The notes below the pieces were generated by a model. The model had not been told where the DNA came from. It saw nothing but the letters and a program-made list of their open reading frames with translations, and searched no databases. The position numbers and the translations under genes were made by a program. From Heptranchias perlo (lineage: Eukaryota), in assembly GCF_035084215.1 (NCBI RefSeq), contig NC_090349.1:9176001-9240000 (forward strand): a stretch of DNA of 64,000 nucleotides, read 5' to 3'. The stretch's first letter is position 1; each line of letters starts with the position of its first letter. Shown piece by piece: positions 18,314-63,700 of this stretch.

Positions 18314-18498
18314 GAACAAATGTTTCTACGTCACAATTACAGGGTTAAAGTTTTCTGCCACAATGTTGACAGATTTAAGTCACTATTATAGGCCAGACGC
18401 GTGCAAATAGAAAGAAATGCATTGTGAATATCTAAACCCCGTTTTCAATCATAAACGCCATGAATAACAGTTTGCACCGAGTGGGCGGGTTTTCTCTT

Positions 18499-18827
18499 TC
18501 ACTGGCAGGCTGATCTCTCGATGCTTTGCTTGAGTTGAGACCCGAGAGACTCATGTGTAACCCCGCAGGTGTACACTTGGTGTGAGTTCCAGTCGGTGGC
18601 GGACAGGGTCAGATAACTGCTCAGACTGTACGTCTGATCGGTGTCCCGTACGGCCTGAGTCGTCTGGACACCAGTGTCCGTGATCTTGCCGTCTACGCTC
18701 CACGATACTTCCACCGAACCCGGGAAAAAATTATTCACCAAACACACCAGGGTCGCCGCCTTTGCAGCAGAGATCTGATCGGACGCCGGCGGGAGGAGGG
18801 ATACCGAAGGGCTGGATGTCTCTCGAT
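18499..18827 (-). CDS. IGLC: Ig light-chain constant exon (lambda-type), cluster A
   Basis: C1-set domain PSVSLLPP..ATLVCLV..F.PG...V.W..YSLSSYLTL...W.SH.VYTC.VTH..ERSACQ with penultimate interchain Cys; acceptor ttcattgtag, phase 1. Confidence 0.95.
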
Positions 18828-18894
18828 CTACAATGAAAATGATTGTGTTTAATAAAGAAAGAAACTGCAATCGTATAATACACACGCGTATAAT

Positions 18895-19345
18895 GCAACC
18901 CCTTGCTCAGTGGTAGCACTCTCGGTCTACGAGTCAAAAGGTTATGGGTTCAAGTCCCACTTCAGAGACTGGAGCACAAAATTTAGGCTGACACTGCAGT
19001 GCAGTTCTGAGGGAGTGCCCCACTGCAGGAGGTGTCCTCTTTAAGATGAGAAGTTAAATCGAGGACTGGTCTGACTTCTCAGTTGCACGTAAAAGATCCT
19101 ATGCCACTATTTCGAAGAAGAGCAGGGGAGTTCTCCCTGGTGTCCTAGCCAATATTTATCCCTCATCTAACATCATTAAAACAGATTATCTGGTCATTAT
19201 CACACTGCTGTTTATGGGATCCTGCTGTAGGCAAATTGGCTGCCACATTTCCGAAATTACAACAGTGACTACACTCCAAAAGAACTTAATTGGCTATAAA
19301 CCGTTTCCTGAAGTCGTGAAAGGTGCTATATAAATTAAAGTTCTT
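18895..19345 (+). mobile_element. tRNA-derived Deu-domain SINE (SacSINE1-like)
   Basis: A box (gctcagtgg) and B box (ggttcaagtcc), central domain ..gtaaaagatcc..gaagaagagcaggggagttctc.., L2-like tail gctatataaa; family name assigned from memory. Confidence 0.75.
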
Positions 19346-19469
19346 TATTTTTCGCCCATAAATCACAGCAACGTAATATGAAAGTGATCACATTCTTTGA
19401 AACAAATGGCCAGACCCTTTACTGTCAATTTGACGTATTTCTATGGAACAAATCTAAAATCACTAGATA

Positions 19470-20430
19470 AATACAACGCACAATAAGAGATGTTGTCATC
19501 CGTCTTCTAGTTTATAGCTGTGCCCGTGTGAATGGACGCCAATCCAGCCTCCCCACAACAGCTATTACATGCAAGTGTGCATATTTGCGCTCAAATCATA
19601 TTAGATCAAAATCGAAACCGTCAAATCTCAGCAGACTTTTATATATCGGAGCTCCAACCAGTAAAACAACGTGGCTTTCAAAAGGGAATTGGATAAGTAC
19701 TTGAAGGGAAAGAAACTGGAGGGCTACGGGGAAAGGGCGGGGGAGTAGGACTAACTGGATTGCTCTTGCACAGAGCCGGCATGGTTTTGACGGGCCGAAT
19801 GGCCTTCTTCTGTGCTGTAACCATTCTAAGATTCAATGGCCCTCACAGGGTTAATCCTTTCTTTACAAACGGATTATTCATTGTATATAGTACAGAAAGG
19901 AAATCTTCCCACACAGGGAGCAAATTAAGGTTAACTGCTACACAACGTTTAGTTTCCGAAGAATAATAATCTCCAAATATTGATCAACGTTTTGTTGCCG
20001 TAAATCTCGGGGATGATGGTCACAAACAGAGCACTAAAATGTTTACTACCTTGAAGGATATTACAATATATATAACGCTGGAAAAATAACCTTTACACCG
20101 TTTCTGCAAAGTTTACGCCGAAGATTCCGCAAGTAATCCAGAAAAAAAGCTCGGTGGAAACCCTATCGTGCACACCCCCTAACTTTTGGTTGAAATCAAA
20201 ACTATTTTCCAATACTAATACTAAATAATAAGTACAACGCACAATAAGAGATGTTGTCATCAGTGTTCTAGTTTAAAACTGTGCCCGTGTGAATGGACGT
20301 CAATCCAGCCTCCCCACAACAGCTATTACATGCAAGTGTGCAAATTTACACTCAAATCATATTAGATTAAAATCGAAACCGTAAAACCTCAGAAGACTTT
20401 TATATATCGGAGCTCCAACCAGTAAAACAA
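19470..20430. repeat. ~200-bp direct repeat pair in the cluster A J-C intron (~19470-19670 and ~20232-20430)
   Basis: tacaacgcacaataagagatgttgtcatc...ggagctccaaccagtaaaacaa occurs twice with few mismatches. Confidence 0.85.
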
Positions 20431-20980: not shown

Positions 20981-22682
20981 CATAGAAGCATAGATTCTTA
21001 CAGCACAGAAGGAGGCCATTCTCTAGTAGTTTCCCCACCACTGACGCTAGACTGATTGGCCTGTAGTTACTAGGTTTATCCCTCTCACCTTTTTTGAATA
21101 GGGATATAACATTTGCAATCCTCCAGTCCTCTGGCACCACTCCCATATCCAAGGAGGATTGAAAGATTGTGATCAGAGCTTCTGCTATCTACACCTTTGC
21201 TTCCCCCAGCAACCAAGGATGCATCCCATCTGGCCAGGGGACTTGTTAACTTTGAGTGATGCCAACCTGTTCAGAACCTCCTTTCTATCTATTGTTATCC
21301 TTTCCAATTTCTCTATTCCCTCTTCCTCTGCTGCGACAATAACTTCACCCTCTGCTTTTGTGAAGACAGATGCAAAATATTCATTCAGTACCTCTGTCAT
21401 GCCCTGTGCCTCCTTCAAGAATATTTCTTTTTTTGTTCCTAATCGGCCCCACCATTCCTTTGACTATCCTTTTACTTTTTACGTTTATAAAGATTTTTAT
21501 GTTACCCGCTAATCTTTTCTCATACTCTCTCTTTGCCTTTCTCATATCCTTTTTTCAATTACCCCCTGCGTTCTCTGTATTCTAAATGTTTTTCTATTGT
21601 ATTCTGTACCTGACATTTGTCAAAAACCTCCCTTTTCTGTTTTATTTTAACCTATATTGCCTTTGTCATCCAGGAAGCTCTAACTTTGGATGTCCCATAT
21701 TTCCTCCTTATGGGAAAATGCTTGGTTTGCAGCCGAAGTATCTCCACCTTGAAAGCCTGCCAATACTCATTTACACTTTTCCTAGCCAATCTTTATTTCA
21801 TTTGTTTCTAGATCTCTCCTCAAATTACTGAAATTGGATCTCTTCCAGCTGGATATTTTCAACTTTGATATTTCTTTGTCCCTTTCAATAACTACTTCAA
21901 AACGAATTACATTATGATCAATATTACCCAGATGTTCTCCCACTGAAAAACACTCCACTTTTCCTATTTCTTTCTCCAGTACTAGATCCAGCATTGCTTC
22001 CTTCCTCGTTGGGCTAGAAACATACTGATTAAGAACGTTCTCCTGTTCACATTTTAGGAATTCTTCACCCTCCTTGCCCTTTACACTGTTTTCCCCTGGT
22101 CTATATTAGGGTAATTGAACTCCCCTGCTATTAGTATTACGGCTCTATTATTTTTACATTTTTCTGAAATTTGCCTACAGATTTGCTCCTTTATCGCCTG
22201 CTCATTATTTGGGGGTTTATAGTAAACACCCAGCAACATAGAAGTTCCTTTTCTGTTCCTTAACTCTAACCAAATAGATTCAGTCTTTGAACCCTCTAGT
22301 ACATCATCCCTCTGCAGCACTGTAATGTTATCCTTGATCAATACTGCCACCTGCTCCTTCACCGCCCCCCCCTCCCCCCCCTCCCCCCCCCCCCCCCCCC
22401 GCTCTTGCCCATGTTTCAGCCAGGTCTGCATTATGGCCACTATATCACAACCCCTTTTGGTTACTTGTGCCTGCAGCTCATCAACCTTATTTGTAACACT
22501 CCTCGCATTAACACACATGCATTCGGATATCATGCTGTCCGACTTTGCTTTTTCCCTCCATCTAATTCCTGTTCTTTCTACACTGTTCTTTACTCTGTTG
22601 CTGTTTGCCCCTCCTAGTTTTCTATGCACCTAGTCTCTCCTCTCTGCTGCTACGTCCTGGTTCCCCTTCTCCTGCCAAATTA
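20981..22682 (-). mobile_element. Internally deleted CR1 LINE in the cluster A J-C intron
   Basis: Endonuclease (NARS..K.DEL, ESIWLEL) and NYRPISL fragments; GTTTT on both sides; absent at the paralogous site near 40830. Confidence 0.85.
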
Positions 22683-22821
22683 GTTTTATATCCCTAATAA
22701 ACGAATTTAAACATTCGTTATAACCTACAGCATCAAGTGTCTTACCTGCCTCATAATATTATATTAATAATCAAAACGAGAATATCCATTGTACAGAATG
22801 AATCAAGTAAAAGTTACTTAC

Positions 22822-22860
22822 TCAGAACAGTCAGCTTGGTGCCTCCACCGAAGTAAAGCA
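22822..22860 (-). CDS. IGLJ: Ig light-chain J segment (LYFGGGTKLTVL), unrearranged, cluster A
   Basis: FGXG motif, GTAAGT donor at 22821, directly abutting a perfect heptamer. Confidence 0.95.
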
Positions 22861-22888
22861 CACAGTGCTACAGACCCATTCAAAAAGA
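22861..22888 (+). promoter_or_regulatory. 12-bp-spacer recombination signal sequence of J
   Basis: CACAGTG (22861-22867) + 12 nt ctacagacccat + TCAAAAAGA (6/9 match to ACAAAAACC). Confidence 0.88.
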
Positions 22889-22980
22889 TCCTGCAACAGA
22901 AACTCGCAGAGTTAATTTATGACATTGAAACAAGCAAGTATCCTACTGGGCATAACTCTTTTATATGGTATTAGGGTATA

Positions 22981-23600: not shown

Positions 23601-23802
23601 ATAGTTCTGAAACGTGCTGAATACGAAGCTTGCTCAGTAATCTCCGAAAGCGTTAAATGGCAATATAATGCCTCACAGACAACATACCAAAAATTTCAGC
23701 AAATCCGGGTAAACAGTTTATGTCGACAACAGGATGGTAACTTTGGAAAATGGGGCGTTTCTTTAGTTGTCCCAGGAAAATCAGGAGTGGGGAGTGGGCG
23801 AC

Positions 23803-24174
23803 CAGTCCTGTGCAGGGTTTTTGTATCAGTCCTGTGCAGGGTTTATGTATCAGTCCTGTGCAGGGTTTTTGCATCAGTCCTGTACAGGGTTTATGTATCA
23901 GTCCTGTGCAGGGTTTATGTATCAGTCCTGTGCAGGGTTTTTGCATCAGTCCTGTACAGGGTTTATGTATCAGTCCTGTGCAGGGTTTATGTATCAGTCC
24001 TGTGCAGGGTTTATGTATCAGTCCTGTGCAGGGTTTATGTATCAGTCCTGTGCAGGGTTTATGTATCAGTCCTGTGCAGGGTTTATGTATCAGTCCTGTA
24101 CAGGGTTTATGTATCAGTCCTGTGCAGGGTTTATGTATCAGTCCTGTACACGGTTTTTGTATCAGTCCTGTGCA
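23803..24174. repeat. 24-bp tandem repeat (~15.5 units) built on the V-RSS spacer and nonamer
   Basis: Unit cagtcctgtgcagggtttatgtat; nonamer-type words every 24 nt from 23816 to 24152. Confidence 0.95.
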
Positions 24175-24190
24175 ATTTTCCTCCATCGTG
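24152..24190 (-). promoter_or_regulatory. 23-bp-spacer recombination signal sequence of V
   Basis: CACGATG (24190-24184) + exactly 23 nt + perfect ACAAAAACC (24160-24152), directly after YYCGWWKSSA. Confidence 0.92.
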
Positions 24191-24504
24191 CGCAGAGCTT
24201 TTCCACCAACCACAGTAATAGTCGGCGTCGTCCTCCGGTTGAACGCCGCTGATGGTTAAATATGCGGCGTTGGTTGCCGACTGACTCCTTCCAGAGAATC
24301 GATCAGGAATTCCGGTACCCCTGCTATCACGGTTAAGATCATGGTAGAGTAGAAATATAGGAGCATTCCCGGGTTTCTGCTGGTACCATCCTATGTCAGA
24401 GTTGCCCAAGGTATCACCAGACACGCTGCAACTTATTTTAACCGTTCCTTCCGGGGTGATAGATAACGATTGCGGTTGAGTTAATGTAATCTCCGCGTTT
24501 GAAC
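24191..24504 (-). CDS. IGLV: Ig light-chain V exon, unrearranged, cluster A
   Basis: Open frame SNAEITLTQPQSLSITPEGTVKISCSVSG..WYQQKPGNAP..GIPDRFSG..YLTISGVQPEDDADYYC; acceptor ttttatag. Confidence 0.95.
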
Positions 24505-24626
24505 CTATAAAAAGATCGAGAAATATTAGAGGGTGAGCTTCAAATCATCAATAACGTCACTTTATATCTCTATACAACAAAACATTGTTCACAATGAATC
24601 CAGTCAAACGTTTCCTGAATACTTAC

Positions 24627-24675
24627 AGACTGCGCAAAGTATCAGCGTTGTGATGACACGGACCCACCCCGACAT
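24627..24675 (-). CDS. IGLV: Leader exon of cluster A (MSGWVRVITTLILCAV)
   Basis: 49-nt hydrophobic exon, GTAAGT donor, phase 1, in frame with the V exon. Confidence 0.9.
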
Positions 24676-24794
24676 TATGAATTGAGTTTGTCTCAGCAAC
24701 CTCGCCAGTTTGCAGGGAGAAGGTGTTGTCTACCAGGCTCCCCTGGTCTTATCAATGGTATGAATGAGGGCGGGTTACCACGTTGTCCTTAATT

Positions 24795-24802
24795 ATGCAA
24801 AT
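24795..24802 (-). promoter_or_regulatory. Ig light-chain promoter octamer ATTTGCAT (cluster A)
   Basis: Perfect octamer 120 nt upstream of the ATG in light-chain orientation; GATAAG TATA-like word near 24750. Confidence 0.9.
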
Positions 24803-32854: not shown

Positions 32855-33160
32855 GTTCTGCACTATAGGTCTCAGCCCTTCACCTAGTTCTGCACTATGG
32901 GTCTCAGCCCTTTCCCTAGTTCTACACTATGTGTCTCAGCCCTTTACCAAGTTCTGCGCTAAGGGTCACAGCTCTTTACCTGGTTCTGCATTATGTGTCT
33001 CAGCCCTTTACCTAGTTCTACACTACGGATCTCAGTCCTTTACCTAACTCTGCATTAGGCGTCTCAGCCCTTCCCCTGGTTCTGTATTATGTTTCTCAGC
33101 TCTTTAGTTCTGCACTATGCATCTCAGCCGTTTACCTAGTTCTGCATTATGGGTCTGCAT
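32855..33160. repeat. Degenerate 32-bp minisatellite (~9 units) upstream of pseudogene B
   Basis: Unit agttctgcactatgggtctcagccctttacct; paralog of 50258-51199. Confidence 0.85.
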
Positions 33161-35046: not shown

Positions 35047-35120
35047 AGATGGAGAAACAAATAAACAATCCCTTTCACCTGGATACCATCGACATATCTG
35101 CTTTCATTTAACTCTTCACA

Positions 35121-35634
35121 ATGTCTGAGTGAGTCCCTGATGCCGTAGTACTGATATTTTTTATGTCGGGTAAATATGGTACGCAAGTTTGATTGCGGGT
35201 TGGGATCGCTGTGAATAACGATTTATTGCACAGTATTAGCTAGTGACTGAAGTGTGTGAAGCTCACATCTCTTCTTTTCATAGGATCAATCGCGCAGATT
35301 ACATTAAGCCAACCAGTATCTGTCCACTGCCCCAGGACGAAACGTCGAAATAAGTTGTACAGTGACCGGAATCAGCTTGGCAAAGCTGCTGTATTCTGGT
35401 ACCAAAAATCTGCGAATGTTCTTCAGTATATTCTGTACCATAATGCCCACACTGTAAGCAGAAGCTCAGGTATTCCAGATCGATTCTCCGGAAGATGTAG
35501 CTCGTCAACCAACGCTGGATATGTAACCATCAGTCAGGTATAATCGGAAGTTGAGGCGAACTAATACTGCTCTGCGTGGATTGGCTCCATTGATCCGTAC
35601 AACTTTGGAACAAGGACCAAGCTGACTTTTCCGA
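35121..35634 (+). pseudogene. IGLV: Germline-joined Ig light-chain L-VJ pseudogene B (paralog of D), no C exon
   Basis: Leader 35121-35169 with TGA at codon 4; VJ exon 35284-35634 with frameshifts and TAA stops; junction YCSAWIGSIDPYNFGTRTKLTF; no RSS. Confidence 0.92.
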
Positions 35635-36934
35635 GTAAGTACATTTTCTTCGTGCTGTTAGAGATGGGTTTGTTATTTATAATTACACTCCTCAAATCAA
35701 TAAGGTCCTAAACATTAATAATCAGGTGTCACAGATTTATTAAGTATACAGTCAATGTATAATAGTACTTAAACCTACACGTCTGCAACCGAACCTGATC
35801 ATTTAGTTGAGGGACTCAAACGTGTTGGAGTACTGAGCTTAGGCCATTATGAATCGAAATACTCATTAGAAACAGCCAATTTTTATACATTTCTCTTACT
35901 CCCCTCACGTGACAATCCACATAATTCTGCAATACATAATTATATAAAAGTTAAAATGCAACTCCATCTAATGAGAATTTAATTGAATTATCTCTTGTCA
36001 ATAACTTTAGTTTTCCAAACGGGTACAACTCTGCTACTGCGTTATCTTATCGATAGTTACATTCTTGTTAGATATAACTGCTATTCCATCAAGTGACACT
36101 TTTAATTATAATTCTGTCTTTGATTCAGTACCATTCCATATCAATCAATCTCCTCCTTCTACATAAATTCCAATTAAAAAGGATGACGTAAACCTAGATG
36201 TTTTCTTTTGCAGAACTAAATGTTTTTCCTGCACTTATTATCAACATTAAAGTTCTCGGAAATATATGAATCTGTATGCAATGGCAAGTCTTTTAATTAG
36301 GTTTACTGAAGTGACTAAACTGACCACTGCTACAGTCAGTTTTGAATCGATACTTTAAATTGACATAAACGTCCCTGCTTAACAGGCAAAGGTTAAAGAT
36401 TAATATTACTACAACATAAAGAGAAATCAACAGTAGTATAATATTAGTTGACTTCAGTCAGTCTGATCAACCCTTTCCTTAAAGTCCAATCTGTTCCTGT
36501 ACTCATGGCAAAGGCTTGTTTCACTTATGGTTTATATACAGACAGAGTTGTGTATGCCTGACCTACAAATTCATTCTGATTTCTTCAATTGTAATAATGG
36601 GGAAAGATCTTTCCAAAAGTCAAAGTATAAAATTAGTCCACGGCCAATAAAAAACTGCAGATTATCCTTTTCTGACCTTCCCTTGTCAGTATTATACAAA
36701 GGGACAAAATATCAAAAGCTTATTTTAAACTAGGAGAAATACCACTCCTATTTTACTGATTAATTTCCCTCTTGTGGACCTTTCTCCATTGGATTGCAAT
36801 GATTCGAATGATGTTGTTTGAGTCCAAAAGGACACAGCATCAATTAGTCTGTTTATATCGTTAGTACATATTTTACCCCTAGAGTCAGAGCTGCTCTTTT
36901 TAAGACGGATTAGATAACTAAATCCTGCGGTGTA

Positions 36935-37325
36935 GTATTTATATAGCACCTTTCATGACCCAGAGAAGTCCCAAAGTGCTTCACAGGCAATGAAGTATTT
37001 TTGAAATGTAGTCACTATTGTAATAGATGCAAACATGGCAGCCAATTTGCACACTCTGAGGTTCCATAAACAGCAATTGGATAAATGACCAGATAATCTC
37101 TTTTTGGTGGTGTTGGTTAAGGAAACAATGTTGATCAGGACACCTGGAGAACTTTCCTGCTTCAAGAAGCACCACGTGAGAGAGCAGATGGGGCCTCCGT
37201 TTAACCCCATCCAAAAGACTATGCCTCCAACAATGCAGCGCTCCCTTAATACTGCACTGAGGCGCTGGAACCCGCAACCTTCCAGTTTAGAGGTAGGAGT
37301 AGAGCCACCAAACCAAGGCTGACAC
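36935..37325 (-). mobile_element. Deu-domain SINE (degraded)
   Basis: Reverse-complement similarity to 18895-19345; paralogous pieces at ~53575-53660 and ~55840-56172. Confidence 0.7.
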
Positions 37326-37328
37326 TAT

Positions 37329-37511
37329 GGGGTAGATCTTGACTTTGTGCAATAGTGTAAACGGGCGATAGCAAGTCGGCAGCTCGTTTTACACCTCTCC
37401 TGATTCTTATTGCAATTGAAGTTAATTTAAATAAAAATCAGGAGAGATGTAAAACGGGAGGTCGATTCGCTATCACCCGGCTTACATTGTCGCATAGATA
37501 GGATATACCCC
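37329..37511. mobile_element. Palindromic MITE with 3-bp TAT TSD (PIF/Harbinger-like)
   Basis: GGGGTAGAT...ATATACCCC, near-full hairpin, TAT on both sides; paralogous copy from 56177 to ~59500 is split by a CR1. Confidence 0.75.
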
Positions 37512-38099
37512 TATGAATTTTCCTAAGTTCCCTGGCGTATTAGGCCCCTAAAACAGCAATTAGTGTGGTCGACACAGGAATCTGCAGGTTACAGACAGGG
37601 ATGTGAGGTCAGGAGATACAGTATTATTAAAGGGATGGAAGACAGCTTGCTTCAAATGTTACTGCTCCGGGTGGAATCTGGCAATAGGAACGCAAAATTA
37701 TCCGAAATTTTGGGACGATCCGAATAAATGTCAGAGAGTAAATGATCTCCACAAGGTGTGTAATAATACACCGGCAGTTTGTTCGGTTTTTTTTATTGCT
37801 TTGACTTCGGGTCGTTTTTTCATTTCATTGAGCTATTTTATAGGAACAAATGAAATAGCCTATGAACAGAGCGGGAGTGTGTGCTGGAATATTTCATAAC
37901 CTGTTTTCAATGAGAATTAGTGTTCGAAATATTTGGAGATTTAACTATTTTGTTTATAGAAATTTCCATTTTCAAGACACTGGGAGAAATTGCATAGGAT
38001 TTGTGCCGTCTTTCAGGAGTTTCCGCCGAAGTTACGGCAGACGAGTGGGAGAACCGCTTCGGATTACGTACCGATTACCCCAATTCTCTGTCTCCTACC

Positions 38100-39985
38100 T
38101 CCTAACCAGTTCCTTATCCATGCCAATAGGTTGCCTCTAATTGCAGGCACTTTAATTTTTGCTAACATTCACTTGTGTGGAAACTTATCCAATGCCTCCT
38201 GGAAGGCCATATAAATAACATCCATAGACATTCCCTTATCTACCATGTCAAAAAATTCAACTAGGTTGGTGAGAAATTACTTATCCTTTACAAATCCATG
38301 CTGGCTCTCTCTGATCAGTTCATGTTTGTCCAGGTGCTCAATCACTCTGTCCCTAGTGATAGATTCGAGTAACTTCCCCGCAGCAGACGTTAGGCTAACA
38401 GGCCTATAATTTCCTGGTTATTCTCTCCCAGCCTTCTTAAATAATGGAGCGACACTGACAATTTTCGAATCCTCAACAATTCCTTAATCAAGAGAGTTTT
38501 GGAAGATCATGACTAAAGCATCTGTAACTAAGCTGAATTTTCATTTCTAATTCGCTTGTTTTATTCCTTAAGCTACGTGTATTTGTGTACAGAACGATGA
38601 TTTGGGCTACAAATCCTACTCTGCCCTTTTGCCCTGATGTTGTTTTTCTCACACTTTTTAAACTTACCACACGTCTTGATTTTCATCACTTCTATTGTAT
38701 TATCAGCTATTTTGTTATTATTTCTCAAACCTCCCTTTCCTCTCCAAAGTCCTGGAATGTGTTCTTGCCTCCCAAATCCATGCCATCTTTCCCTCAATTC
38801 CATGTTTGAAACTCTCCAATTTGGTTTCTGCCCATACCACAGCAATGAAACAACCCTAATCAAAGTCACAAATGACATCTTATGTGACTATGACCATGAT
38901 GCACTATCCCTTCTCATCAATCTCGAACTGTCTGCAGCCTTTAACATGGTTGGTCATATCATCATCCTCCAACACCTTTCCCCCGTTGTCCAGCTCAGAG
39001 GGACCACCCTCGACTGGTTCCATTATTATCTATCCAGTAGTAGCCAGAGAATCTCCGGTAATGGCTTCTCTTCTCATCCCTACAATGTTACCTCTGGAAT
39101 CCCCCACGGCTTGTAAGGTGGGGGAAGGGGATGTTAATATCGAGGCCCATGGCTTCGGTCTTCCCAATATTTAATTGAAGGAAATTTCAGCTCGTCCAGG
39201 ACTGGATGTCGGACTAGCATTCTGACAACACAAAGGTAGTGGAGGGGTTGGTGAGGTATAGCATCAGTGTACATGTGAAACCTGATGTTGGGCTTTCGGA
39301 TTATGTCACAAGTGACAGCAGGTAGATGAGAAATAGGAGGAGCCAAGCATAGATCCTTGGGGGACTCCAGAGATAACAGTGCAGGGACAAGAAGAGAAGG
39401 CATTGCAAGGGACAGTCGGGCAGAGTGAGCATTGGAATTCGCATCGCTTAAAGACTTCCCACAGTTGCAGGGCTCCATAGATTGCACACACGTGGCAAGC
39501 AGAACACCCCGACCAGCCAGGAGCATTTGTGAACCACAAGGGCTTCCGGTCCATCAATGTTCTCCACCCATAGAAAGAAGTTCATGCAGGTCTGTGCACA
39601 GTTCCTTGGGATGCCTTCATACTGCAGCGGTCACATAGCCCCAAAATGTTCATAGCTGGGACAAACCTGACAGGATGGCGCTTGGGAACAAGGGATACCG
39701 GTTGCAACCGTGGCTCATGAGGGAGTATTGTGCACAGTTCTGGTCACCACATTACAGGAAGGATGTAATTGTTCTGGAGAGAGTGCAGAGAAGATTTACA
39801 AGAATGTTGCCAGGGCTTGAAAATTGCAGCAACTAGCAAATTTCAAGCCCTGGTAGAGGCAGGGACCCTCAACTCTTTTAAAAAGTACCTGGACTTGCAC
39901 CTAAAGTGCTGTAAGATGCAAGGCTACGGACCGGGTGCTGGAAGGTGGGACTAGAATGGGCACCTGGTTGTTCTATGGTTCTATG
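38100..39985. mobile_element. Patchwork of CR1, L2 and Harbinger-transposase fragments
   Basis: CR1 (~38100-38520), L2 (QFGFCPYHSNETTLIKVTNDI, ~38760-39420), Harbinger remnant FPQLQGSIDCTHVA (~39430-39720), CR1 3' end (~39720-39985). Confidence 0.7.
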
Positions 39986-41013
39986 GGAGGCTAGATTGAC
40001 GCCCATCCATGCGGGTAGAGCTATAAACTAGAATACTGATGGAAACATCTCTTTTGCTGCATTCCACGAATTATTTGGTATCAGTGTTAGGACAGGATTT
40101 TGATTTCAACCAAAAATTACAGGATTGTGTGTGAAAGTAACACGATAAACACAAAGGGATAGGATTTCCACGGAATTTTTCCCCTGATATCTTGGGGATA
40201 TCAGGGGAAATTATATATTACTTTAAAATTGCAACCGTAAAATCTCAGCAGACTTTTATATATCGGAGCTCCAACCAGTAAAATAAAACGGACGAGTGCC
40301 GACGTCAATGCGTCCAACAACGTATTGGAGAACGTATTGGGGGAATTTTCTGTCTGAGCTCTATATGTACCGCAATCCACCTCTTTATAAACGATTTCGT
40401 GACACATAGCGTACAGAAGACATCTTTCTACTGGTGAGAAACAGTATCGGTTATCGAAAGTAAACCATAAGCTGGGTATTAGGTTCGGGACATTATGAAT
40501 CTCCGAATAATTATTGAACTCGTCATTCGAAATTAATATCCCCCAATGATCGCGTTAAAAATTTACGGTGCACCAGTAATTAAAGGAGACGCCGTTATTT
40601 TCTCTCACTCTCTATCTGCTCGTCTCTCTCTTCCTCTCTGTCTCTCTCTATCTGTCTGTCTCTCTGTGTTTGATTTTGCATATTTGCTATTTGTGCGATA
40701 CTTTCAATTATGTTTTTAAACATACAATCTATGAAACATTTCTTTTGTTCGCTGTCTCTGCTCGAAGGGAGGAAATTAATCATAGCATATAACCCATCGT
40801 TTGCCTTACGCTTTCAAAACCTGATTGTTTTATATCACTAATAAGCGAATCACTGTTTAAACTTTGGTTGAGAACTACACCTCCAATTGTATTATCTGCT
40901 TCATATTATTGTAATAATCCAAATGAGAATTGATTTGACTATCTGCTGTATAGAAGGAGAAAAATATCCTGCCGAAGTGCTTGTACAGAATGCATCAAGT
41001 AAAAGTTACTTAT

Positions 41014-41410
41014 TCAGAACAGTCAGCTTGGTGCCTTTACCGAGGTAGAGCTGCGCCACAAACCACAGTAATAGTTGGCGGCGTCCTCCGATTGAACACC
41101 ACCGATGGTTAAATATACGGCGTTGGTTCATGACTGTTTCCTTCCAGAGAATCGATCTGGAATTCCGGAACGCTTGACCTCATGGTCAAGATCTTGATAG
41201 AGTAGAAATCGAGCAGCATTCCCGGGTTTCTGCTGGTACCATCCGATGTCAGAATTTCCCAAGGTACCACCAGACACGCTGCAGCTTATTTTAACCGATC
41301 GAGCAATTTTAGAGGGTGGACTTCAAATCATCAATAACGTCAGTTTATATCTCTATACAACAAAACATTGTTCACAATGCATCCATGATGACACGGACCC
41401 ACTCGGACAT
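41014..41410 (-). pseudogene. IGLV: Germline-joined Ig light-chain L-VJ pseudogene C (paralog of A), no C exon
   Basis: ISCSVSGGTLGNSDIGWYQQKPGN..GIPDRFSGRKQS*..NYYCGLWRSS fused out of frame to LGKGTKLTVL; J donor GT>AT; deletions remove the leader donor and FR1/acceptor; octamer mutated (plus-strand ATGCAAAC near 41512). Confidence 0.93.
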
Positions 41411-42209
41411 TATGAATTGAGTCAGAAACGTCGCCAGTTTGCACGGAGATCTGGTACCCCTTGTTTTATCAATGATATGGATGAGCGCGCATTACCACGT
41501 TGTCCTCAATTATGCAAACGAACGCTGACGTTACAGTTATTATTAAGAAGGATTAACAATCCTTGGTAGCATTAATAACACCAAACAGCAAGCATTTATG
41601 TCACTGTTACAAACCCCAATTGAGCATCTATGATCGTGTTCAGGCCTTTACACCACAAGATTTCCAAACTGGAGATGGCAACATTGGATTGTAGAACCGA
41701 TCTATATTGTGATGCTGTGCACCACACGCAAGATTTATTAATATTTAGTACAAGGACGTGCTGAAAACACTGATTGTGTAAAATGTGTAAATAAGTTCTC
41801 ATTTTTGACAAAACTCAGTAGGGACATATTTTTGACCTTTCCTTTTACACATGCCACATGTAACCATATGGGTGCAATTTTAATCAGCATTTCCGCCCTC
41901 TCTAAAGACACTGCTGTCCTAAATTTCCAATGATAACGATAATCTTCATACATTTAGAAATCAATCCGTAGAAAGTCAGCTACATTGCTACAAACTGTAG
42001 CTTGATGATATTTTATCTTTACAAGGAAATATTTTTTACGACGAATTTAAAGATGTTAGCCCATTACGGTGTATTTGAGCCGTCTCTGTGGACGCGTCAG
42101 TAAAGATCTTCGCTGAAAATAAAACGATGCTTATTACCATATGATATGAATCGATTCCCTACAAATTAGGAAACGATTATTTGGCTGTAAACCGAATATT
42201 GGCACAAAG

Positions 42210-43885
42210 ACCAAGACAGTAGAAATAATAATGGGGAATAAGGAAATGGCAGAGACATTAAACAAATATTTTGTATCCGTCAACACAAAAAACATACCGG
42301 AAATAGTGGGGAACCAAGGGTCTCATGAGAGTGAGGAACTTAAAGTAACTAAGGTTAGTAAAGAAAAGGTACTGGCGCAATTAATAGGACTAAAAGCTGA
42401 CAAATCCCCTGGACCTGATGGTCTATATCCTATGGTTCTAAAACAGGTGGATGAAGAGATAGTGGATGCATTGGTTTGATCTACCATAATTCCCTAGATT
42501 CTAGATAACTCCCATAGTGGATTGGAAGGTAGCAAATGTAACCCCGCTATTCAGGAAAGGTGGGAGAGAGAAAACATGGAGCTATAGGCCAGTTAGCCTG
42601 ATATCAGTAGTTAGGAAAATGCTAGAATTATTATTAAGGAAGTGGTAACAGGGCATTTGAAAATGATAATATGATTGGGCAGAGTCAACACGATTTTATG
42701 AAAGGGAAATCGTGTTAAACAAATCTATTAGAGTTTTTTGAGGGTGTAACTAGCAAGGTAGATAAGGGGGAACCAGTGGATGTAGTATATTTGGATTTTC
42801 AAAAGGCATTCGATAAGGTGCCACAACAGACGTTGTTACACAAGATTAGAGCTCATGGGATTGGGGGTAATATATTAACAAGGATTGAGGATTGGTTAAC
42901 GGACAGAAAACAGAGAGTAGGAATAAACATGTCATTTTTGGGTTGGCGGATGAGGGGACCGAGTGTAATGTATCCAATTTTGTTGATGATGCAAATCTAG
43001 GTGGGAAAGTACACAAAGAGGCTGCAAAGAGATATAGACAGGTTAAGTGACTGGGCGAGACGGTGGCAGATGGGGTATAATGTAGGGAAATGTGAAATTA
43101 TCCACTTTGGTAGGAAGAATAGAAAAGCAGAGTAATTTTAAGAAGTGAGAAACTAAGAAATGTTGGTATTCAGAGGGTTTTCGGTGTCCTTGTACACGAA
43201 TCACAGAAAGTTAACAAGCAGGTAAAGCAAGCAATTAGGAAGGCAAATAGTATGTTAGCCATTATTGCAAGCGAGTTGGAGTATAAGAGTAAGGAGGTCT
43301 TGGTGCAATTATATAGGGCACTTGTGAGACTACACCTGGAGTACAGTTTTGGTCTCCTTACCTAAGGAGGGATGTTCTTGCTTTAAAGGGGCAACAAAGG
43401 TTCACTAGATTGATTCCTGGGATGAGAAAGTTGTCCTATGAGGAGAGATTGAGTAGAATGGCCCTATATTCTCTGGAATTTAGAAGAATGAAAGGTGACC
43501 TCATTGAAACGTATACAATTCATAGAGGGCTTGACAGGGTAGATGCTGAGAGGCTGTTTCCCTGGCTGGAGAGTCTAGAACTAGGGTCATAGTCTACCAA
43601 GATAAGGAGTTGGCCATTTAGGACCGAGATGAGGAAACATTTCTTCATTCAGAGGGTTGTGAATTTTTGTCAGTCTCTATCCCAAAAGGCTAGGGATGCT
43701 CAGTCATTGAGTCGAAGACTGAGATCGATAGTAATTTGGACACTAAGGGAATCAAGGGATATGGGGTTATGGCGAGAAAGTGGAGTTGAGGTAAAAGATC
43801 AGCCATGATCTTATCGAATGATGGAGCAGGCTCGAGGAGTCATATGGCCTACTCCTGCTCCTATTTCTTATTTTCTTATGTTCTA
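42210..43885 (+). mobile_element. CR1 LINE, 5'-truncated and degraded
   Basis: KSPGPDG and VVYLDFQKAFDKVP fragments, CR1 tail; absent at the paralogous site near 25430. Confidence 0.88.
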
Positions 43886-47778: not shown

Positions 47779-50257
47779 GTAAATCAAAGACTGGCAACTT
47801 GGTGATTGAACCTAATGCTACCTTCATAACTAAATCAGAACATTTCTAGAGGTGTTTGCAAGTGCCTTCAGCCAAAGCTGCAGAGTGGATGATCCTACTT
47901 AGCCACCCCCTGAGAACCCCGCCACCATACATATCATTGTCCATTTAAATCGATTCACTCCATGTGAGATTAAGAAGTGGCAAAGACTATAGGCCCTGAT
48001 AACATCATAATTGCAATGCTGAAAACCTATGCACCAGAGCTAGCTGTCCCCCTAGTCAAGCTCTTCCAGTATAAATAATGAGATTTTGCAAGATGGCCGA
48101 GTTAAGTGCTGTCCAGAACAAACACAGAATAAATCTAACGCAACCAATTTACTGTCCTGTTAGCTGCCTCCCAATCATCAATAAAGTTTTGGAAGGAGCC
48201 ATTAATAGTTCCATCAAGGAACGCCTATTCAACAATTGCTGGCTCAAAATGCTCAGTTTAGGTTCCAACTGAACCATTCAGCTCTAGACTGCATCACTGC
48301 ATTGATGCAGCGACAGCTGAATGCAAGAGAAGATGTGAAAATCGCTGTCCTTGACACGAAGATAGTATTTTACTAAGCATAGCACCAAAGAGCCCTAGCA
48401 AAACCTAAGTGAAGGGCGTCAAAGGAAAACTACTCCAGTGGCTGGAGTCACACCTGACGCCAAGGAAGGTGATTGTGATTCTTGGAGTCCAGCCATCATA
48501 GTCACAGGACATCATTGCAGGTCTTCCTCAGGAAAGCATCTTCAGCCCCCCATCTTCAGCTGCTTCATCTATGGCCTTCCCTCTGTCATAAGGTCAGGAA
48601 TGAGACTGTTCGCTGCTGATTCTTTAGTGTTCATCTCCATCGGAATTCCGATAATGATGGAGCCCACATTAGCCTACATCAGGATCTGGATAACATCCAG
48701 GCTTGGGCTGACACGGCAGGTAACATTTGCAGGATAGAAAACAACTAATACCCATTACAGGCATTATACCAGTTGCTTGCCCCGGGGATTGGTGCTGGGA
48801 CCATAAGAACATAAGAAATGGGAGCAGGAGAAGGCCATACGGCCCTCGATATTTGTAAGCCATACGGCCGCTCGAGCCTGCTCCGCCACTCAATAAAACT
48901 ACTACTGCTTCTAGTTTACATCAATGACATGGTCTCAGAAACGCAGTGCAAGTTGGTACAATTTGAACATGATCAATGGAATTGGAAGAGGCAGCTCTTA
49001 AAGTACAGAATGAACTGTGTTAGTTTTAGACGTCTGAGTGAGGAGGAAAACTGGGGTAGCTTGGCCTTTTCAGCCTTCAAAGTAGACATCTGATAGGTGA
49101 TTTTATAGCGATATTTAAGATAGTGAACTATCTGGAAATGATAAAGCTGGAAAATTACTTTAAATTAAATTGAAAGTAGGATAATAGGCCACAGATTCAA
49201 CAAGATGTATTTACACATCGACTTTAACGTGAAAAAGCCACAAGGCGAATCCCAGAGGCATAATACAAATATTGAACACCAAGTCAAAGAAGTAGGTTTT
49301 AGGAGGTGTGACCAAACGTTTGGTCAAAGAGGTAGGTTTTCAGGAAAGGCTTAAAGGAGGAGTGGGAGATGGAGACGTGGAAGGGGTTAGGGAGAGAATT
49401 CAAAAGCGCAGGGCTTAGGCGTCTGAAGGCACGACTGCCAATTGTAGGAGGAGGGTACAAGATAGGGAGTGGCAAGGCCATGAAGGTATATAAATTACCT
49501 GGAGAAGCTATTATTACAGCTTGCAATGCTAAGTCAATTACGCAGCATTTGCTGGACAATAGATAGTCCAATTTGGGATATTTCTATTTGATGCGTCAAG
49601 TAATAGACGCTAACAGATGTGGACTAATTGGGGGTAATGTTGACTTTGTGCGATAGTGCAAAATGTGTGATAGCGAATCGGCAGCCTGTTTTACATTTCT
49701 CTCCATTTTTATTTCCATTGACTTCACACCTAGCCTGCTCCACTCTCTACAGCACTTGAATGTTGTGGTATGCCATTCAGTCCTTGCACAAGCACATGAC
49801 TAGAACAGCCTATAAACCACACTGACTTCTGCTAATTCCACACCAGTAGGCGCATCTCCCTGCGTAACACTGTCATTTGAGATAAGTGTTTCTTCCTGTT
49901 AAATTCTATGGAAGCCGATTGTTAGATGTCCAGTAATATTTGCTTTAAGTGTAGAGTATTCAATCCACACCCTCAACCTCGTCATCAAAGCAGTGCGTTG
50001 GAATAGTAACCTAGTAGGACTTATGCAAAATACCGTAAATTCCTTATTCATTTCTAAAGGACCATGTAATTTCAAGTACAAACCAAAATAAATCTCTAGT
50101 TTATATTGGCTCCTTTTAGGCATATGCGCAGTGTAGAATGTCATCAGACATTTAACTGGAGAACGCAATCCACAACTGCTCTAAGAGTGGATCAAATCCC
50201 CTTCCGCAACAAGTCGCAAATCAATTGTGCTTTAAGTTCCTCCGTCATAATTGACCG

Positions 50258-51199
50258 AATTCTCCACTATGGGTCTCAGCCCTTCACCTAATTCTCCACT
50301 AATGGGTCTCAGCCCTTCACCTAATTCTCCACTAATGGGTCTCAGCCCTTCACCTAATTCGCCACTATGGGTCTCAGCCCTTCACCTAATTCGCCACTAT
50401 GGGTCTCAGCCCTTCACCTAATTCTCCACTAATGGGTCTCAGCCCTTCACCTAATTCGCCACTATGGGTCTCAGCCCTTCACCTAATTCTCCACTAATGG
50501 GTCTCAGCCCTTCACCTAATTCGCCACTATGGGTCTCAGCCCTTCACCTAATTCGCCACTATGGGTCTCAGCCCTTCACCTAATTCTCCACTAATGGGTC
50601 TCAGCCCTTCACCTAATTCGCCACTATGGGTCTCAGCCCTTCACCTAATTCTCCACTAATGGGTCTCAGCCCTTCACCTAATTCGCCACTATGGGTCTCA
50701 GCCCTTCACCTAATTCGCCACTATGGGTCTCAGCCCTTCACCTAATTCGCCACTATGGGTCTCAGCCCTTCACCTAATTCGCCACTATGGGTCTCAGCCC
50801 TTCACCTAATTCTCCACTATGGGTCTCAGCCCTTCACCTAATTCTCCACTAATGGGTCTCAGCCCTTCACCTAATTCTCCACTAATGGGTCTCAGCCCTT
50901 CACCTAATTCTCCACTATGGGTCTCAGCCCTTCACCTAATTCTCCACTATGGGTCTCAGCCCTTCACCTAATTCTCCACTAATGGGTCTCAGCCCTTCAC
51001 CTAATTCTCCACTAATGGGTCTCAGCCCTTCACCTAATTCTCCACTAATGGGTCTCAGCCCTTCACCTAATTCTCCACTAATGGGTCTCAGCCCTTCACC
51101 TAATTCTCCACTAATGGGTCTCAGCCCTTCACCTAATTCTCCACTATGGGTCTCAGCCCTTCACCTAATTCGCCACGATGGGTCTCAGCCCTTCACCTA
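50258..51199. repeat. Homogeneous 32/33-bp minisatellite (~29 units) upstream of gene D
   Basis: Unit aattc(t/g)ccacta(a)tgggtctcagcccttcacct, head-to-tail with no spacers. Confidence 0.95.
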
Positions 51200-51596: not shown

Positions 51597-51650
51597 ATTT
51601 GCATAGATACAGGACAGGCGGTAACGCCTCGTTCACAGGGTTGATAAAAA
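51597..51650 (+). promoter_or_regulatory. Promoter of gene D: octamer ATTTGCAT (51597-51604) and TATA-like GATAAAAA (51643-51650)
   Basis: Perfect octamer ~120 nt upstream of the leader ATG. Confidence 0.88.
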
Positions 51651-51725: not shown

Positions 51726-51774
51726 ATGTCTGAGTGGCTTGTTGTTGTCACCGTGCTGATACTTTTTATGTCAG
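51726..51774 (+). CDS. IGLV: Leader exon of gene D (MSEWLVVVTVLILFMS)
   Basis: 49-nt hydrophobic exon, GTAAAT donor, phase 1. Confidence 0.9.
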
Positions 51775-51878: not shown

Positions 51879-52235
51879 GCTCAAACGCTGAGGTTACATT
51901 AAGCCAACCACAGTCTCTTTCCACTGCTCTGGGAGGAAACGTCGAAATAAGTTGTACAGTCACCGGAGTCAGCTTGGGAAACGCAGCTGTATCCTGGTAC
52001 CAGCAAAAATCTGGGAATGTTCCTCGGTATATTCTGTACCATAATGCCCAAACTGTAAGCAGAGGCTCCGGCACTCCAGATCGATTCTCCGGAAGAAGTA
52101 GCTCGTCAACCAACGCTGGATATTTAACCATCAGTCAGGTGCAATCGGAGGATGAGGCGAACTATTACTGCGGTGTATGGATTAGCTCCATCAATGCTTT
52201 TGCCTTCGGGACAGGCACCAAGCTGACTTGTCTGA
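51879..52235 (+). CDS. IGLV: Germline-joined VJ exon of Ig light chain D, in frame
   Basis: EVTLSQPQSLS..ISC..WYQQKSG..PDRFSG..EDEANYYCGVWISSINAFAFGTGTKLTCL, GTAAGT donor, no RSS; L+VJ+C = 49+357+329 = 735 nt (244 aa). Confidence 0.95.
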
Positions 52236-59200: not shown

Positions 59201-59480
59201 GCCTGCTTTGACCTTACTTGTTGCTGCACATTATTGATAAACTCTCTGTCCCTTCCTGCCACACTCTGCTTATCTTTACCCAAATCACTACACTGCTCTA
59301 TTGTCTTAACTTTTCTCATTAGATTTCTAAATTTCCCCTCACCTGACCCCTCCTTCCCGAACCCCCCTTTTTTTTTAGTTTAAAGCCCTATCTACAGCCC
59401 TTGTTATTCCATTCGCCAGAACGCTGGTCCCAGCCCGGTTTAACTGGAGCTCCCTCTTTCCCCAGTACTGGTGCCAATGC
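56295..59480 (-). mobile_element. CR1 LINE in the J-C intron of D
   Basis: Endonuclease and RT fragments (58744-59067, 57295-58017, 56983-57279, 56493-56756); interrupts a MITE. Confidence 0.9.
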
Positions 59481-60386
59481 CCCTGGTTAAGATCTACCCC
59501 TGAGTCTTCCTGAGTTCCCTAATATATTAAATCCGTAAAATAATAATTAGTGAGGTTGACAAAGGAATGTGTGGGACACAGATAAAAAGGGGCATGAGGT
59601 AAAGACATACAGTATTATTAAGAAGATGGAAGATAGCTTGCATTAAGTGTTGGTGCGCCGGGGGGTCAGTGGTTGAATTTGGAACGCAAAATTACCCGGA
59701 ATTTTGGGAAGATCCGAATAAATGTCAGCGAGTACCACAAACTGTAATATTTCACCGGAAGTTTGATCGTTATCCTTTATTATTTTGACTTCAGGTTGTC
59801 TTGTCATTTTATTGAGCTATTTTATAACCTGTGAACAGAGCTGGGAGTGTGCGTGCTGGAATATTTCATTTCCTTACAAACCCAGTAAGATTGTAAGTGA
59901 AACGTCGGGAGCGCAACTGCCGCGGGCAACAATGCTGGCAGAAGATGAGCGACACTTTCCCGTAGTGTGTTCTGTCTGTTCTCTTTCTTTGATAGCTTAA
60001 TGTGTGTGTCCTCTACTTTTTATAGACACTAATTCATGAAATGCAATCAGTGCATCGAAACTGTAGTTTGGCATTTAATATACTTGGAGCGCCATTCTGT
60101 AAATATATCAGGGCACACAGAATATGTGACGGCCCTGATCCAAATAACCTCAGTTTTCAATTAGAATTATTATTCGAAATATTTAGCGGCATTAACTATT
60201 TTATTTATAAACACTTGGGGAGATTGCATAGAATTTGTGCTATCTTTCAGGGGTTTCCGCCGAAGTTACGGCCGACGAGCGGGAGAACACGCTGGGAAAT
60301 TCAGCCGCAACTGCTTTGTTCCAGTATTGCAGTAACACCTGGTTTATTTATTTACTTATCTGCCTTTAAACTATTTCCCTTTCCAG

Positions 60387-60715
60387 CCCGAGAGACGTCC
60401 AGCCCTTCGGTATCCCTCCTCCCGCCGGCGTCCGATCAGATCTCTGCTGCAAAGGCGGCGACCCTGGTGTGTTTGGTGAATAATTTTTTCCCGGGTTCGG
60501 TGGAAGTATCGTGGAGCGTAGACGGCAAGATCACGGACACTGGTGTCCAGACGACTCAGGCCGTACGGGACACCGATCAGACGTACAGTCTGAGCAGTTA
60601 TCTGACCCTGTCCGCCACCGACTGGAACTCACACCAAGTGTACACCTGCGGGGTTACACATGAGTCTCTCGGGTCTCAACTCAAGCAAAGTATCGAGAGA
60701 TCAGCCTGCCAGTGA
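60387..60715 (+). CDS. IGLC: Ig light-chain constant exon (lambda-type), gene D
   Basis: Acceptor tttccctttccag; same protein as the cluster A C exon apart from the split first codon. Confidence 0.95.
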
Positions 60716-63700
60716 AAGAGAAAACCCGCCGTATTCGGTATAAAGTCTGTTATCGAACATGGAGCAGGGACTGTTAAAACGATTTCATTTTTTCCTTTGC
60801 TTGTAATCTTATATCCGATTTCTTAACTGTATCAGGAATGGATCCTGTATTATCGATTTAAAATATCGTTTATTACAATCATATTTCATTCGCAGAGGTG
60901 GTGAATCTGTCAGTGTCTTTTTTATCCAAAAAGTGGACAGTAATTTCTCTGAAACCAATGCCAGTGAATATTTTAGTTAAGCACTACTCATTTTTTGACA
61001 TCAATTGGAAAAAGATAGCCATCACCCAGAACTTAAATTATTATTTAATTCAACCCAGAATCATTTTCCAGACCTACGTTTCAAATTAATTTATGAATTG
61101 TAAACATATAGGAGACATATATAACAGATATTCTTCGGTTTACATTAGTTAGGATAGAAATTCCGCGGGGTTCTCCCGATCTCACGCCTCAACTTTGACG
61201 GAAGATCGATGGAAACCGCAGTGAAACGGCTGCTTTGACGCCGCTTCTCCGAAGTTTCACCGATCTTCCATCGGAGAGCCCCCCCACCACCCCCGAAATT
61301 CCAAGCGGTTAATTACAAAATCCGCTCCATAACTAAACCAAATAAAGTGCGGAGGTGACTTCATGTTGATGCGGCTACATTTCACTAGTAATTTCACCTA
61401 ACCATCTACAGAAGAAATTAGCGTTGAGGTTATCAATAATTCCGCCAATGTCAGACATTCATTCCTGTATCACCTTACCCCCAATATCTCAGCTCTTTTC
61501 AAACTCTCTAGTTATCTGTCACTGGTAGCCCGGAGCTCTTCCAATGCCTTCTTTCGTTTTTTACTCTATTACCCATTTCTTTCTTTACGTTTTCACTTTA
61601 AATACACCCGGCTCATTGAGTAGCTTATGTTGCTTTATGGTGCTACATGTATCAAGAGTGAACTGTTTCTAAGGCATCGATATTTAGAACAATTTGAAAC
61701 CCATTTTCCGTGTTATATACTCGTCAGTAGTTGGGATATTCCATTCATCCCTGCAATGTTCAAACAGCTATATTAAAAATATATATCTTGAGAGTTTTTA
61801 AAGAAACAGAGAGGCTGTGTGTGTGTGTGCGCGCATATGTTTATATATGTGTGTGTGTGTGTGACCAGGCGAGGACAGGAATGTTGCAGAGCTGCTGACT
61901 GCACTAGGCCGCTGAAACAAGTAGAACCAAGCAAGGGCAGTCCTGTGGATGTGGACCATGGAGGAGAGATGGTGATGAAGGATTAAATGGTTGAACATGT
62001 GACGCACGGGGAGAGGTCCAGAAGAATAAGGGATAATGCCTCACAGTCGCGTCACAAGGATTTCATCGGTGACTTTGACCAGAAATTCCGCGGGGTTCTC
62101 CCGATCTCACGCCTCAAGCAAGACCATAGGGTTAAAACAGAGAATTATGGGCGATACTGATTGCAGAAAAAAAAAAGATATAAAAGGGTTACTGTATCCA
62201 GTCCTTTAAAATAGTCCCTTTAAACCCCGTTATGTAATTCACTAATATAAATAGATAATTGGAGAAACTGCACACTTGCATCTGGAAGTTCCTTCGGTAT
62301 GAATAGATTTTAAACCGATCTCTTTTAGTCTGACTCCTGAGGTAAATTGTGTAATAAGAAACAGCGACTCTAAAAATGTTCCTTTCACCTCTCCCGAGCA
62401 ACGAAACATCTCAGCAAAATAAGAACGAGAAAGCCATTTTGTTTCTTTACCCATTTCTGTTACTGTTTTAAGGCTTTCAGTGATTTACCAACTGTACCCG
62501 GGCGTGGATCTTTGTCCCTATGATCCAGAGGTTGTAACTCCTCTATACCTTCTCCTCGAAATGTGGTGAAGAGTTCACAACTACCTCACTTGCATTAATT
62601 AATATGAAGTAAAAATCAGCAGATACTAAAAGTACAACAAATATACCTTGTAAATTCAATAAGAAAGCGCCAAATGGGTCATTTAGCCTTAGAAAGAACC
62701 CCTCTGATTCAACCGAAGAGTCTCTGGGAATTGAACAAGATATTCTTATTGCTCAGGAAAACTCGAGGGGTAGAATTTCTGCGGTGAGTGCTCACTATCG
62801 TCCGCCTTAGCTTCGGCGGAAGATCGCGCAAACCCCAGGGAAATGACCGTTTAGACCGTTTCTGTAGGGTTTCCATAGAATTTACGGCGGGAGATCGGCG
62901 AATCCCCCGGAAATTCTATACCCTTAAGTTGTTCCGAAGTTCTCGCTTTTAACCTCTTATGTGGGAATACAACAAATATAGATGTATGCACGAAAAAGGA
63001 GGATACACGTGGGCGTGTCAAAAATAGTGCAAGTACGGTTAGATAATAAGGATTTTCACGAATAAGGACTTTATGCACAGATGAGATATTTATCTTTACC
63101 GCAGTTCAATCCACAGATTCTCCCCCTCCCTTGGCAAATACTTAAACTGCAAAAAAAACTTACTGGATACAATGGGGGTTAAATTGGTTAACCCCAGAAA
63201 CTGGGCGCGATCCGCTATTAATCCGCACCTGGTGCAGGCAGGACAAAGCATTAGTCCTGCCTGAACACTTACCTCAGCCAAGCGTTAAAAACCTGCCTTG
63301 ACACAAGGATTAAAGGACATCCGAACTCTCCACCAGCAGGGGGAGCTCGAATCTTTAAAGGCGGGCTGTCTCTCACACAGATTTCCCCCCTCCCCTGATA
63401 AATATATAAACCAGAAAAAAATAACTTACTAGATACATTAACTGCAAACTGGGAATGTTCATTAGTCAGTGGAAAGGGAGCTGAACGGTAGGAAGCCAGT
63501 GGCAGCATCAGAGAATGGAGAGATCTCGGCTCAAACCCAGCAAAGATAATACAGCTTAAAAAACAATCTTAGCAAAAGTCTAACGGACTTCCCTCAGCCA
63601 AGCCAATGTTTAGTCTTCCTGTTAAGATTAACTTTCTGCCGGGGTTCTCCCGATCGTGCGCCGAAACTTCAGCGTAAGAACGCCGGAAACCCCGGACAAA

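Follow-up and report, generated by a model that had tools for sequence, protein, structure and literature searches.

How have two immunoglobulin (Ig) constant (C) exons, lying in opposite orientation some 41.5 kb apart, come to be almost the same sequence? The question is raised by a 64,000-nucleotide (nt) stretch of the genome of the shark Heptranchias perlo (RefSeq assembly GCF_035084215.1, contig NC_090349.1, forward-strand positions 9,176,001 to 9,240,000), termed the window here. It carries two Ig light-chain clusters: cluster A, on the minus strand, in which the variable (V) and joining (J) segments are split, and cluster B, on the plus strand, in which they are joined in the germline. 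An initial annotation, made from the letters of the window, had proposed recent, exon-limited and possibly GC-biased gene conversion between them. We suggest that C1 and C2 are the constant exons of two light-chain clusters with old, distinct V families, and that their near-identity very probably reflects repeated germline gene conversion confined to the exon. The paired exons and their shared tract are as follows.

18499..18827, minus strand: C1, constant exon of cluster A (split); acceptor confirmed by J1-C1 joints 18827/22822 in contigs of the runs X5, X6 and X9
18484..18816, minus strand: A side of the tract, its perfectly shared core, with one internal difference at 18523, from a raw-read unitig and the alignment; degraded similarity to about 18460
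60387..60715, plus strand: C2, constant exon of cluster B; the shared tract ends at 60730, with degraded similarity as far as about 60753

An exact comparison of C1 with C2 finds four differences in 329 nt, at exon positions 1, 2, 11 and 305 (BLASTN E 1.6e-175, far above chance), which bears out the annotated count of two leading bases and two synonymous sites. Positions 1 and 2 finish the split J-C codon, as Asn in the minus cluster and Thr in the plus cluster. Read from position 3, both copies give the same 108 amino acids (aa) of an Ig C1 domain, and the two remaining differences are synonymous: 2 in 79.7 synonymous sites against 0 in 244.3 non-synonymous ones (synonymous divergence, dS, 0.026; non-synonymous divergence, dN, 0). 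Three of the four differences thus fall on the 5' side, within the first 11 nt of the exon. At the other end, identity runs 15 nt past the stop into the 3' untranslated region (UTR), as annotated, but it does not collapse there at once; about 25 nt of degraded similarity follow (61% with gaps, equalled by 0 of 300 shuffles) before chance level is reached (274 of 300 shuffles equal). The 200 nt upstream of the exons are not clearly above chance (18 of 300 shuffles equal), and the J-C introns, said by the annotation not to align, have in common just mobile-element fragments of 66-82% identity and short chance matches. Also as annotated, the C exons are rich in GC and CpG for their surroundings (57% GC and an observed/expected CpG ratio of 0.91-0.95, with 38-42% GC in the 1-kb flanks). 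A DNA search of the 3.25-Gb genome with the C exon gave 19 matches, all on contig C28, which carries the pair; two are near-identical, the next best stands at 78%, and there is no third near-identical copy among the 19. The corresponding protein search gave two matches at 100% and the next at 68%, with 150 of 359 candidates scored.

Exon-bounded near-identity is also the known shape of an assembly or polishing artefact, in which one exon is written over a divergent paralogue, and contigs assembled from a DNA run of this shark have a single letter at position 305. The raw reads, however, yield an independent 333-nt DNA unitig (18484-18816) at a depth of 99.8, where six unique-flank pieces have depths of 33.8-65.3, in keeping with a sequence that occupies two places in the genome. 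Its ends are the position-11 difference and the end of the UTR identity. A double-depth unitig bounded by the very ends of the tract makes the collapse of divergent exons, against which the initial annotation had itself warned, unlikely, and no divergent C unitig over the exon is listed among the contigs of the DNA run. At position 305 the unitig agrees with C2; the letter of C1 is found in two transcript-like runs of the same sample (their RNA status is a tool's guess, with no record as RNA), and both letters occur in transcript contigs. Other species' assemblies show the pattern too, and we regard an artefact as exceedingly improbable.

The V and J parts of the two clusters are as follows.

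22822..22860, minus strand: J1 segment, unjoined; a DNA unitig (22657-22916) without differences covers J1 and its signal
24191..24504, minus strand: V1 exon, family A, open frame
24627..24675, minus strand: leader exon of cluster A; octamer at 24795-24802
51726..51774, plus strand: leader exon of cluster B; octamer at 51597-51604
51879..52235, plus strand: VJ2 exon of family B, joined in the germline and in frame; database model P0001, labelled Heptranchias perlo, is the same protein

The V domains agree at 63 of 98 aa and 209 of 294 nt, much as first estimated (about 63% identity), and the J segments at 43 of 49 nt. With a saturated V dS of 1.09 against a C dS of 0.026, the C tract is too similar for the age of the duplication, and its ends are abrupt, in flanks at background level. 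The same can be said on the scale of the whole array, for which 16 clusters on C28 (120 pairs) were compared with V and C matched by position. The A/B pair has the lowest proportion of synonymous differences (pS) in C of all 120 (0.013, trimmed exon), and its two flanks, at 0.51 identity, lie within the background range of 0.46-0.54; in the next four lowest-pS C pairs the flanks are 0.86-0.99 identical. Likewise, contig C47 bears another C pair in inverted orientation, whose copies match at 98.9% over 1131 nt, flanks included. That pair (L038-L039, C47:3380630-3389666) forms a 1.1-kb inverted duplication encoding the same protein twice, with one V found in 30 kb. Duplicates of this genome carry their flanks along, and the A/B pair is therefore unlike a plain duplication.

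It might still be argued that a C-containing segment was duplicated recently and its flanks then lost or replaced, all the more as duplications and mobile elements abound at this locus. Against this, the true recent duplicates found here have kilobases of matching flank, and the flanks of the pair can be shown to be old on both sides: upstream of C2, the match to a pseudogene copy reaches to within 94 nt of the exon, and the sequence 3' of C1 recurs in a transcript contig of another organism. The event would, moreover, have had to recur with exon precision in several lineages, which leaves this explanation hardly credible. Between the pre-joined families of the array, C pS is 0.15-0.28 where V pS is about 0.7, with unrelated flanks, which suggests older exchange events of like kind. 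The part that the annotation gave to GC bias is not supported. GC at third codon positions (GC3) is 0.67-0.68 in the paired exons and 0.53-0.60 in 14 other intact C exons of the array, but the C exons of two other isotypes, which have no such pairing, reach 0.76 and 0.80, and the two synonymous A/B differences point in opposite directions with respect to GC. The GC3 comparison lends no support to GC-biased conversion as a driver.

If exchange is recurrent, it should be visible in other cartilaginous fishes, and we compared 13 family-A and 9 family-B database models from sharks and rays, to which six further models were added; this evidence is at the protein level, from uncurated automated gene models, with one nucleotide contig besides. 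In the V tree, families A and B form clades with supports of 100/99 and 99/98, respectively. The C tree has no A and B clades (7 changes each), and approximately unbiased (AU) tests on C reject an A clade (p 1.4e-8) and a B clade (p 6.4e-8); on V they reject same-species pairing in four of four cases. Nine species have both genes. In all nine, the V of the B gene is best matched by a B gene from a different species, and in five its C is best matched by the A gene of the same species. C identity between A and B is 105 of 105 in the window species, 103 in Narcine, 98 in Pristiophorus, 89 in Pristis and 86 in Mustelus, and 95 of 104 in Heterodontus. Bamboo shark has two A-type genes, A and A2, which agree at 75 of 95 residues in V and 104 of 105 in C. 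The converted part thus groups by species (five of nine, three rays excepted) and the unconverted part by orthology. The prediction that V would group by family was confirmed, and the prediction that C would group by species came true in those five species but failed in the three rays, with a near tie in Mustelus. Of the original proposal, conversion between a split and a pre-joined gene stands, although as a recurrent process across elasmobranchs and not as a single recent event. Exon-limited homogenisation is, on the sequences compared, recurrent in elasmobranchs, and three species of the stingray group appear to have escaped it.

These comparisons also bear on the idea that strong purifying selection on the nucleotides themselves, as in a splicing enhancer or a regulatory CpG island, together with the slow substitution of sharks, kept the exons alike without any exchange. 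The exon is indeed CpG-rich, and recent duplicates have a C pS somewhat below their V pS. Yet C varies freely between species (66-90% aa identity), and a minus-type transcript contig of another, related organism differs over 18440-18827 at 13 of 388 nt, which is more than the paralogues differ from one another. The equally low synonymous divergence between orthologues that the initial annotation had named as fatal to its proposal is thus not seen, and the C trees reject orthology. Species-specific residues are common to both paralogues, which selection alone does not explain, and non-coding paralogous DNA of the window has diverged by 12-19% since a duplication younger than the A/B split. Selection on nucleotides is, in our judgement, very improbable as the whole explanation.

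From copy number, tract limits, the contrast in rates and the grouping of C by species, which are the observed basis, we infer a break-repair mechanism. A double-strand break in one C exon would be mended with its counterpart, at a distance of 41.5 kb, as template. Enough homology for this would remain in the exon alone, so that tracts would reach no further than the splice acceptor on one side and would die out by steps in the 3' UTR on the other; the stepped decay seen there fits repeated tracts with varying ends. Each event would reset identity and hold the pair above the homology threshold, below which the V exons would have drifted. Given the opposite orientation of the copies, a crossover would flip the DNA between them and not delete it, and the arrangement would tolerate such repair. 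Selection would accept a homogenised C domain in that both chains would pair with the same heavy-chain CH1.

The template could instead have been spliced RNA, or cDNA, of a highly transcribed partner, in which case tracts would also end at the acceptor and enter the 3' UTR. The sharp 5' end of the tract at the exon start and its extension on the transcribed 3' side only agree with this, and pre-joined genes indicate germline RAG-type activity at these loci (PMC2193156; statements from the literature, here and below, cover the accessible portions of the papers cited). Three of the four differences, however, lie where homology-limited DNA tracts would be expected to leave them, next to the diverged intron; the 19 genome matches include no processed copy of either gene; and lymphocyte transcripts would have to reach germ cells. 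We regard an RNA template as unlikely, if less so than the other alternatives.

Several points weigh against repeated germline conversion as we propose it. No conversion event or polymorphic tract was directly seen, and the present data do not tell DNA-templated from RNA-templated conversion. The contigs of the DNA run list only the C2 letter at position 305, and that run is one sample, possibly the assembly's own source; a single sample of this organism contains the stretch. The support from other species consists of automated protein models and a single nucleotide contig. C groups by orthology in three myliobatiform rays (A and B agree at 69-73 of 105), and in Mustelus the best C match is a catshark A gene (0.83, with 0.82 for its own), a near tie; conversion is thus not universal.

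The process itself is of a known kind, of which this locus offers a clean new instance. Rudikoff et al. in 1992 reportedly, by the title of their paper, dealt with gene correction in T-cell receptor (TCR) C-beta. In the mouse, C-beta1 and C-beta2 undergo exon-specific gene correction (PMC2188480; PMC2685407): there too a two-member family has its constant-domain exon homogenised separately in different species, which has been ascribed to conversion and to a shared, non-polymorphic partner. In contrast to the mouse pair, the shark copies are inverted, 41.5 kb apart, and belong to separate V-J-C clusters, one split and one pre-joined; their V families are common to sharks and rays, and some lineages escaped. 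Exons C2-C9 of UrIg2 in nurse shark and epaulette shark are likewise Ig C-type exons homogenised within species by conversion, but they are tandem exons of one non-rearranging gene, where ours belong to separate light-chain genes (PMC12227049). Exchange between C-kappa and C-lambda has been speculated upon (PMC5985310). Elasmobranchs thus offer a natural on/off comparison of conversion, and the case is a warning that trees of C domains misdate shark light-chain clusters.

What kind of gene is the split partner? Its recombination signals, with an associated repeat, are these.

22861..22888, minus strand: J1 recombination signal, 12-nt spacer, canonical heptamer, nonamer with 3 mismatches; catshark model P0062 reads through the homologous stretch
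24152..24190, minus strand: V1 recombination signal, 23-nt spacer, heptamer with 2 mismatches (CAC kept), perfect nonamer
23803..24174, minus strand: tandem array of 15.5 x 24-bp units, each made up of the nonamer of the V1 signal and the last part of its spacer; 15 nonamer-like copies with 0-1 mismatch

With V-23 and J-12 signals, cluster A is predicted to rearrange by deletion; "rearranging" is here a prediction from the signals and from J-C splicing. Splicing of J1 to C1 is seen in 15, 8 and 2 contigs of three runs that represent two organisms (their transcript status is the tool's guess). At the J1-C1 junction (18824-18829 / 22820-22826), transcript-like contigs carry several variant letters, possibly somatic mutation. 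The 24-bp array places 15 nonamer-like RAG binding motifs behind one heptamer, and no heptamer lies 12 or 23 nt from any other nonamer, that is, no cryptic extra signal was found in it.

We consider it likely that cluster A is a split lambda-type gene. Lambda genes have 23-nt spacers at V and 12-nt spacers at J (PMC5985310), as cluster A does, and in sterlet and gar the true lambda locus shows linkage to IFT81 (PMC5985310). IFT81 lies on C28, 17 Mb from the pair, a loose linkage that favours true lambda over lambda-2, which also has 23/12 spacing; no labelled lambda-2 sequence was returned for comparison. The best database matches are labelled lambda, by automated naming, and a search of the PDB gave engineered antibodies, which are of no value for isotype. 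The V tree leaves A, B, the lambda groups and kappa-like V in one open fork, and AU tests do not reject A and B grouping with kappa (p 0.5) or with sigma-2 (p 0.22). Three other light-chain loci of the genome, on contigs C9, C47 and C32, have V-12 signals; from sequence features we take them to be kappa-like, sigma-2-like and sigma-like. Just one V-12 kappa-like cluster was found on C9 (L036-L037), with an identical C on the small contig C1371 (L044), and such counts are lower bounds. For nurse shark, a cited review gives about 60 kappa genes.

Studied lambda genes of cartilaginous fishes are all described as germline-joined (PMC5192425; PMC4279169). Much here agrees with that picture: the cluster shares its array and contig with type II (NS3-like) V-J-C clusters, its C is 53-57% identical to those of pre-joined neighbours, cluster B is pre-joined, and pre-joined type II-like clusters lie to either side of the A/B pair. 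C28 has 16 further V matches, all of which were fetched; 15 are joined to J and one is split. In the latter (L023/L046, about 1 Mb away), the V signal has a 23-nt spacer and the signal of the J is weaker. This cluster sits at the far end of the array (L046, C28:10170500-10178500), its V-23 signal and J lie about 270 nt apart, its C is 68% like that of the window, and it has a whale-shark relative, P0047. Cluster A and L046 do not fit the rule that all cartilaginous-fish lambda is germline-joined; in contrast to the lambda of the reviews (PMC5192425; PMC4279169), both are split with V-23/J-12 signals, and A and B have V and C subfamilies of their own.

The split state may extend to other sharks. 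A cloudy catshark model, P0062, reads DLLERICSTV before its J, where the frame through the J signal of the window reads DLFEWVCSTV, which points to a catshark gene that would be split too; a second model of the same gene, P0128, bridges V to J. RefSeq-type models bridge split V and J segments in this way (P0031 compared with L046; P0128 compared with P0062), and do not reveal whether family A is joined or split in other species. A V-only search for homologues reading through into signals gave one match in 51 candidates and was uninformative. In a limited literature search we found no report of a split shark lambda gene or of conversion between shark light-chain C exons, and the covered parts of a bioRxiv preprint (10.1101/2022.06.22.497154) contain no lambda. 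That the split lambda-type cluster is both rearranging and unreported is a matter of about even odds.

A wider scenario can be put together from these results. In it, a lambda gene that rearranges would have survived unnoticed in sharks, conserved in a hexanchiform shark and a catshark at the least. The gene would be expressed, would have given rise to germline-joined copies, and would have its C domain in common with a pre-joined partner of ancient origin, by way of conversion that is active in the majority of elasmobranch lineages and has ceased in stingrays; taken as a whole, we judge this equally apt to prove right or wrong. The reviews hold shark lambda to be wholly germline-joined and thereby devoid of junctional diversity, which makes the split gene the larger and more surprising point. 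That it stands beside its own out-of-frame joined copy renders two things testable: junctional diversity in lambda, and the origin of joined genes from split ones through RAG in germ cells. If this is true, the locus is a living record of how the pre-joined lambda repertoire of sharks arose from split genes.

The joined copy is one of two pseudogenes between the clusters.

35047..38058, plus strand: pseudogene copy of cluster B, with leader, joined VJ with stops and frameshifts (35121-35634) and truncated intron, without C exon; 81-88% like B
39985..42213, minus strand: pseudogene copy of cluster A, with germline-joined out-of-frame VJ (about 41300-41010) and truncated intron, without C exon; 85-88% like A

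In nurse shark NS4, a kappa family, a joined copy beside its split paralogue likewise lets the germline joint be reconstructed, as the pseudogene at 41300-41010 does here; the isotype and signal spacing differ, and the present copy is out of frame and lacks a C exon (PMC2193156). Twenty nt separate its Cys and Phe codons, and its out-of-frame state could reflect either a non-productive joint or a later loss of one base. The joint (41300-41010, minus strand) can be read as V minus 3 nt and J minus about 5 nt, with one shared base. The simplest history for both pseudogene copies is that an internal segment, broken once in either J-C intron, was duplicated in tandem, and breakpoints so placed would leave the copies C-less without any loss of C; a tblastn search at E up to 10 revealed no C exon remnant between them. 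Where the duplication is presumed to join, 39985-40119 is a short piece of pseudogene intron inverted relative to its template. A 32-bp minisatellite precedes cluster B (50254-51199, 29 copies, 97% alike) and also the pseudogene copy of B (32855-33156, 9.6 copies, 76%). Further away, 7600-13900 holds a GC-rich element with an open frame of 509 aa (7904-9433), which we take to resemble a Harbinger-type transposase, together with a partial second copy at about 12262-12999 and partner frames on the opposite strand.

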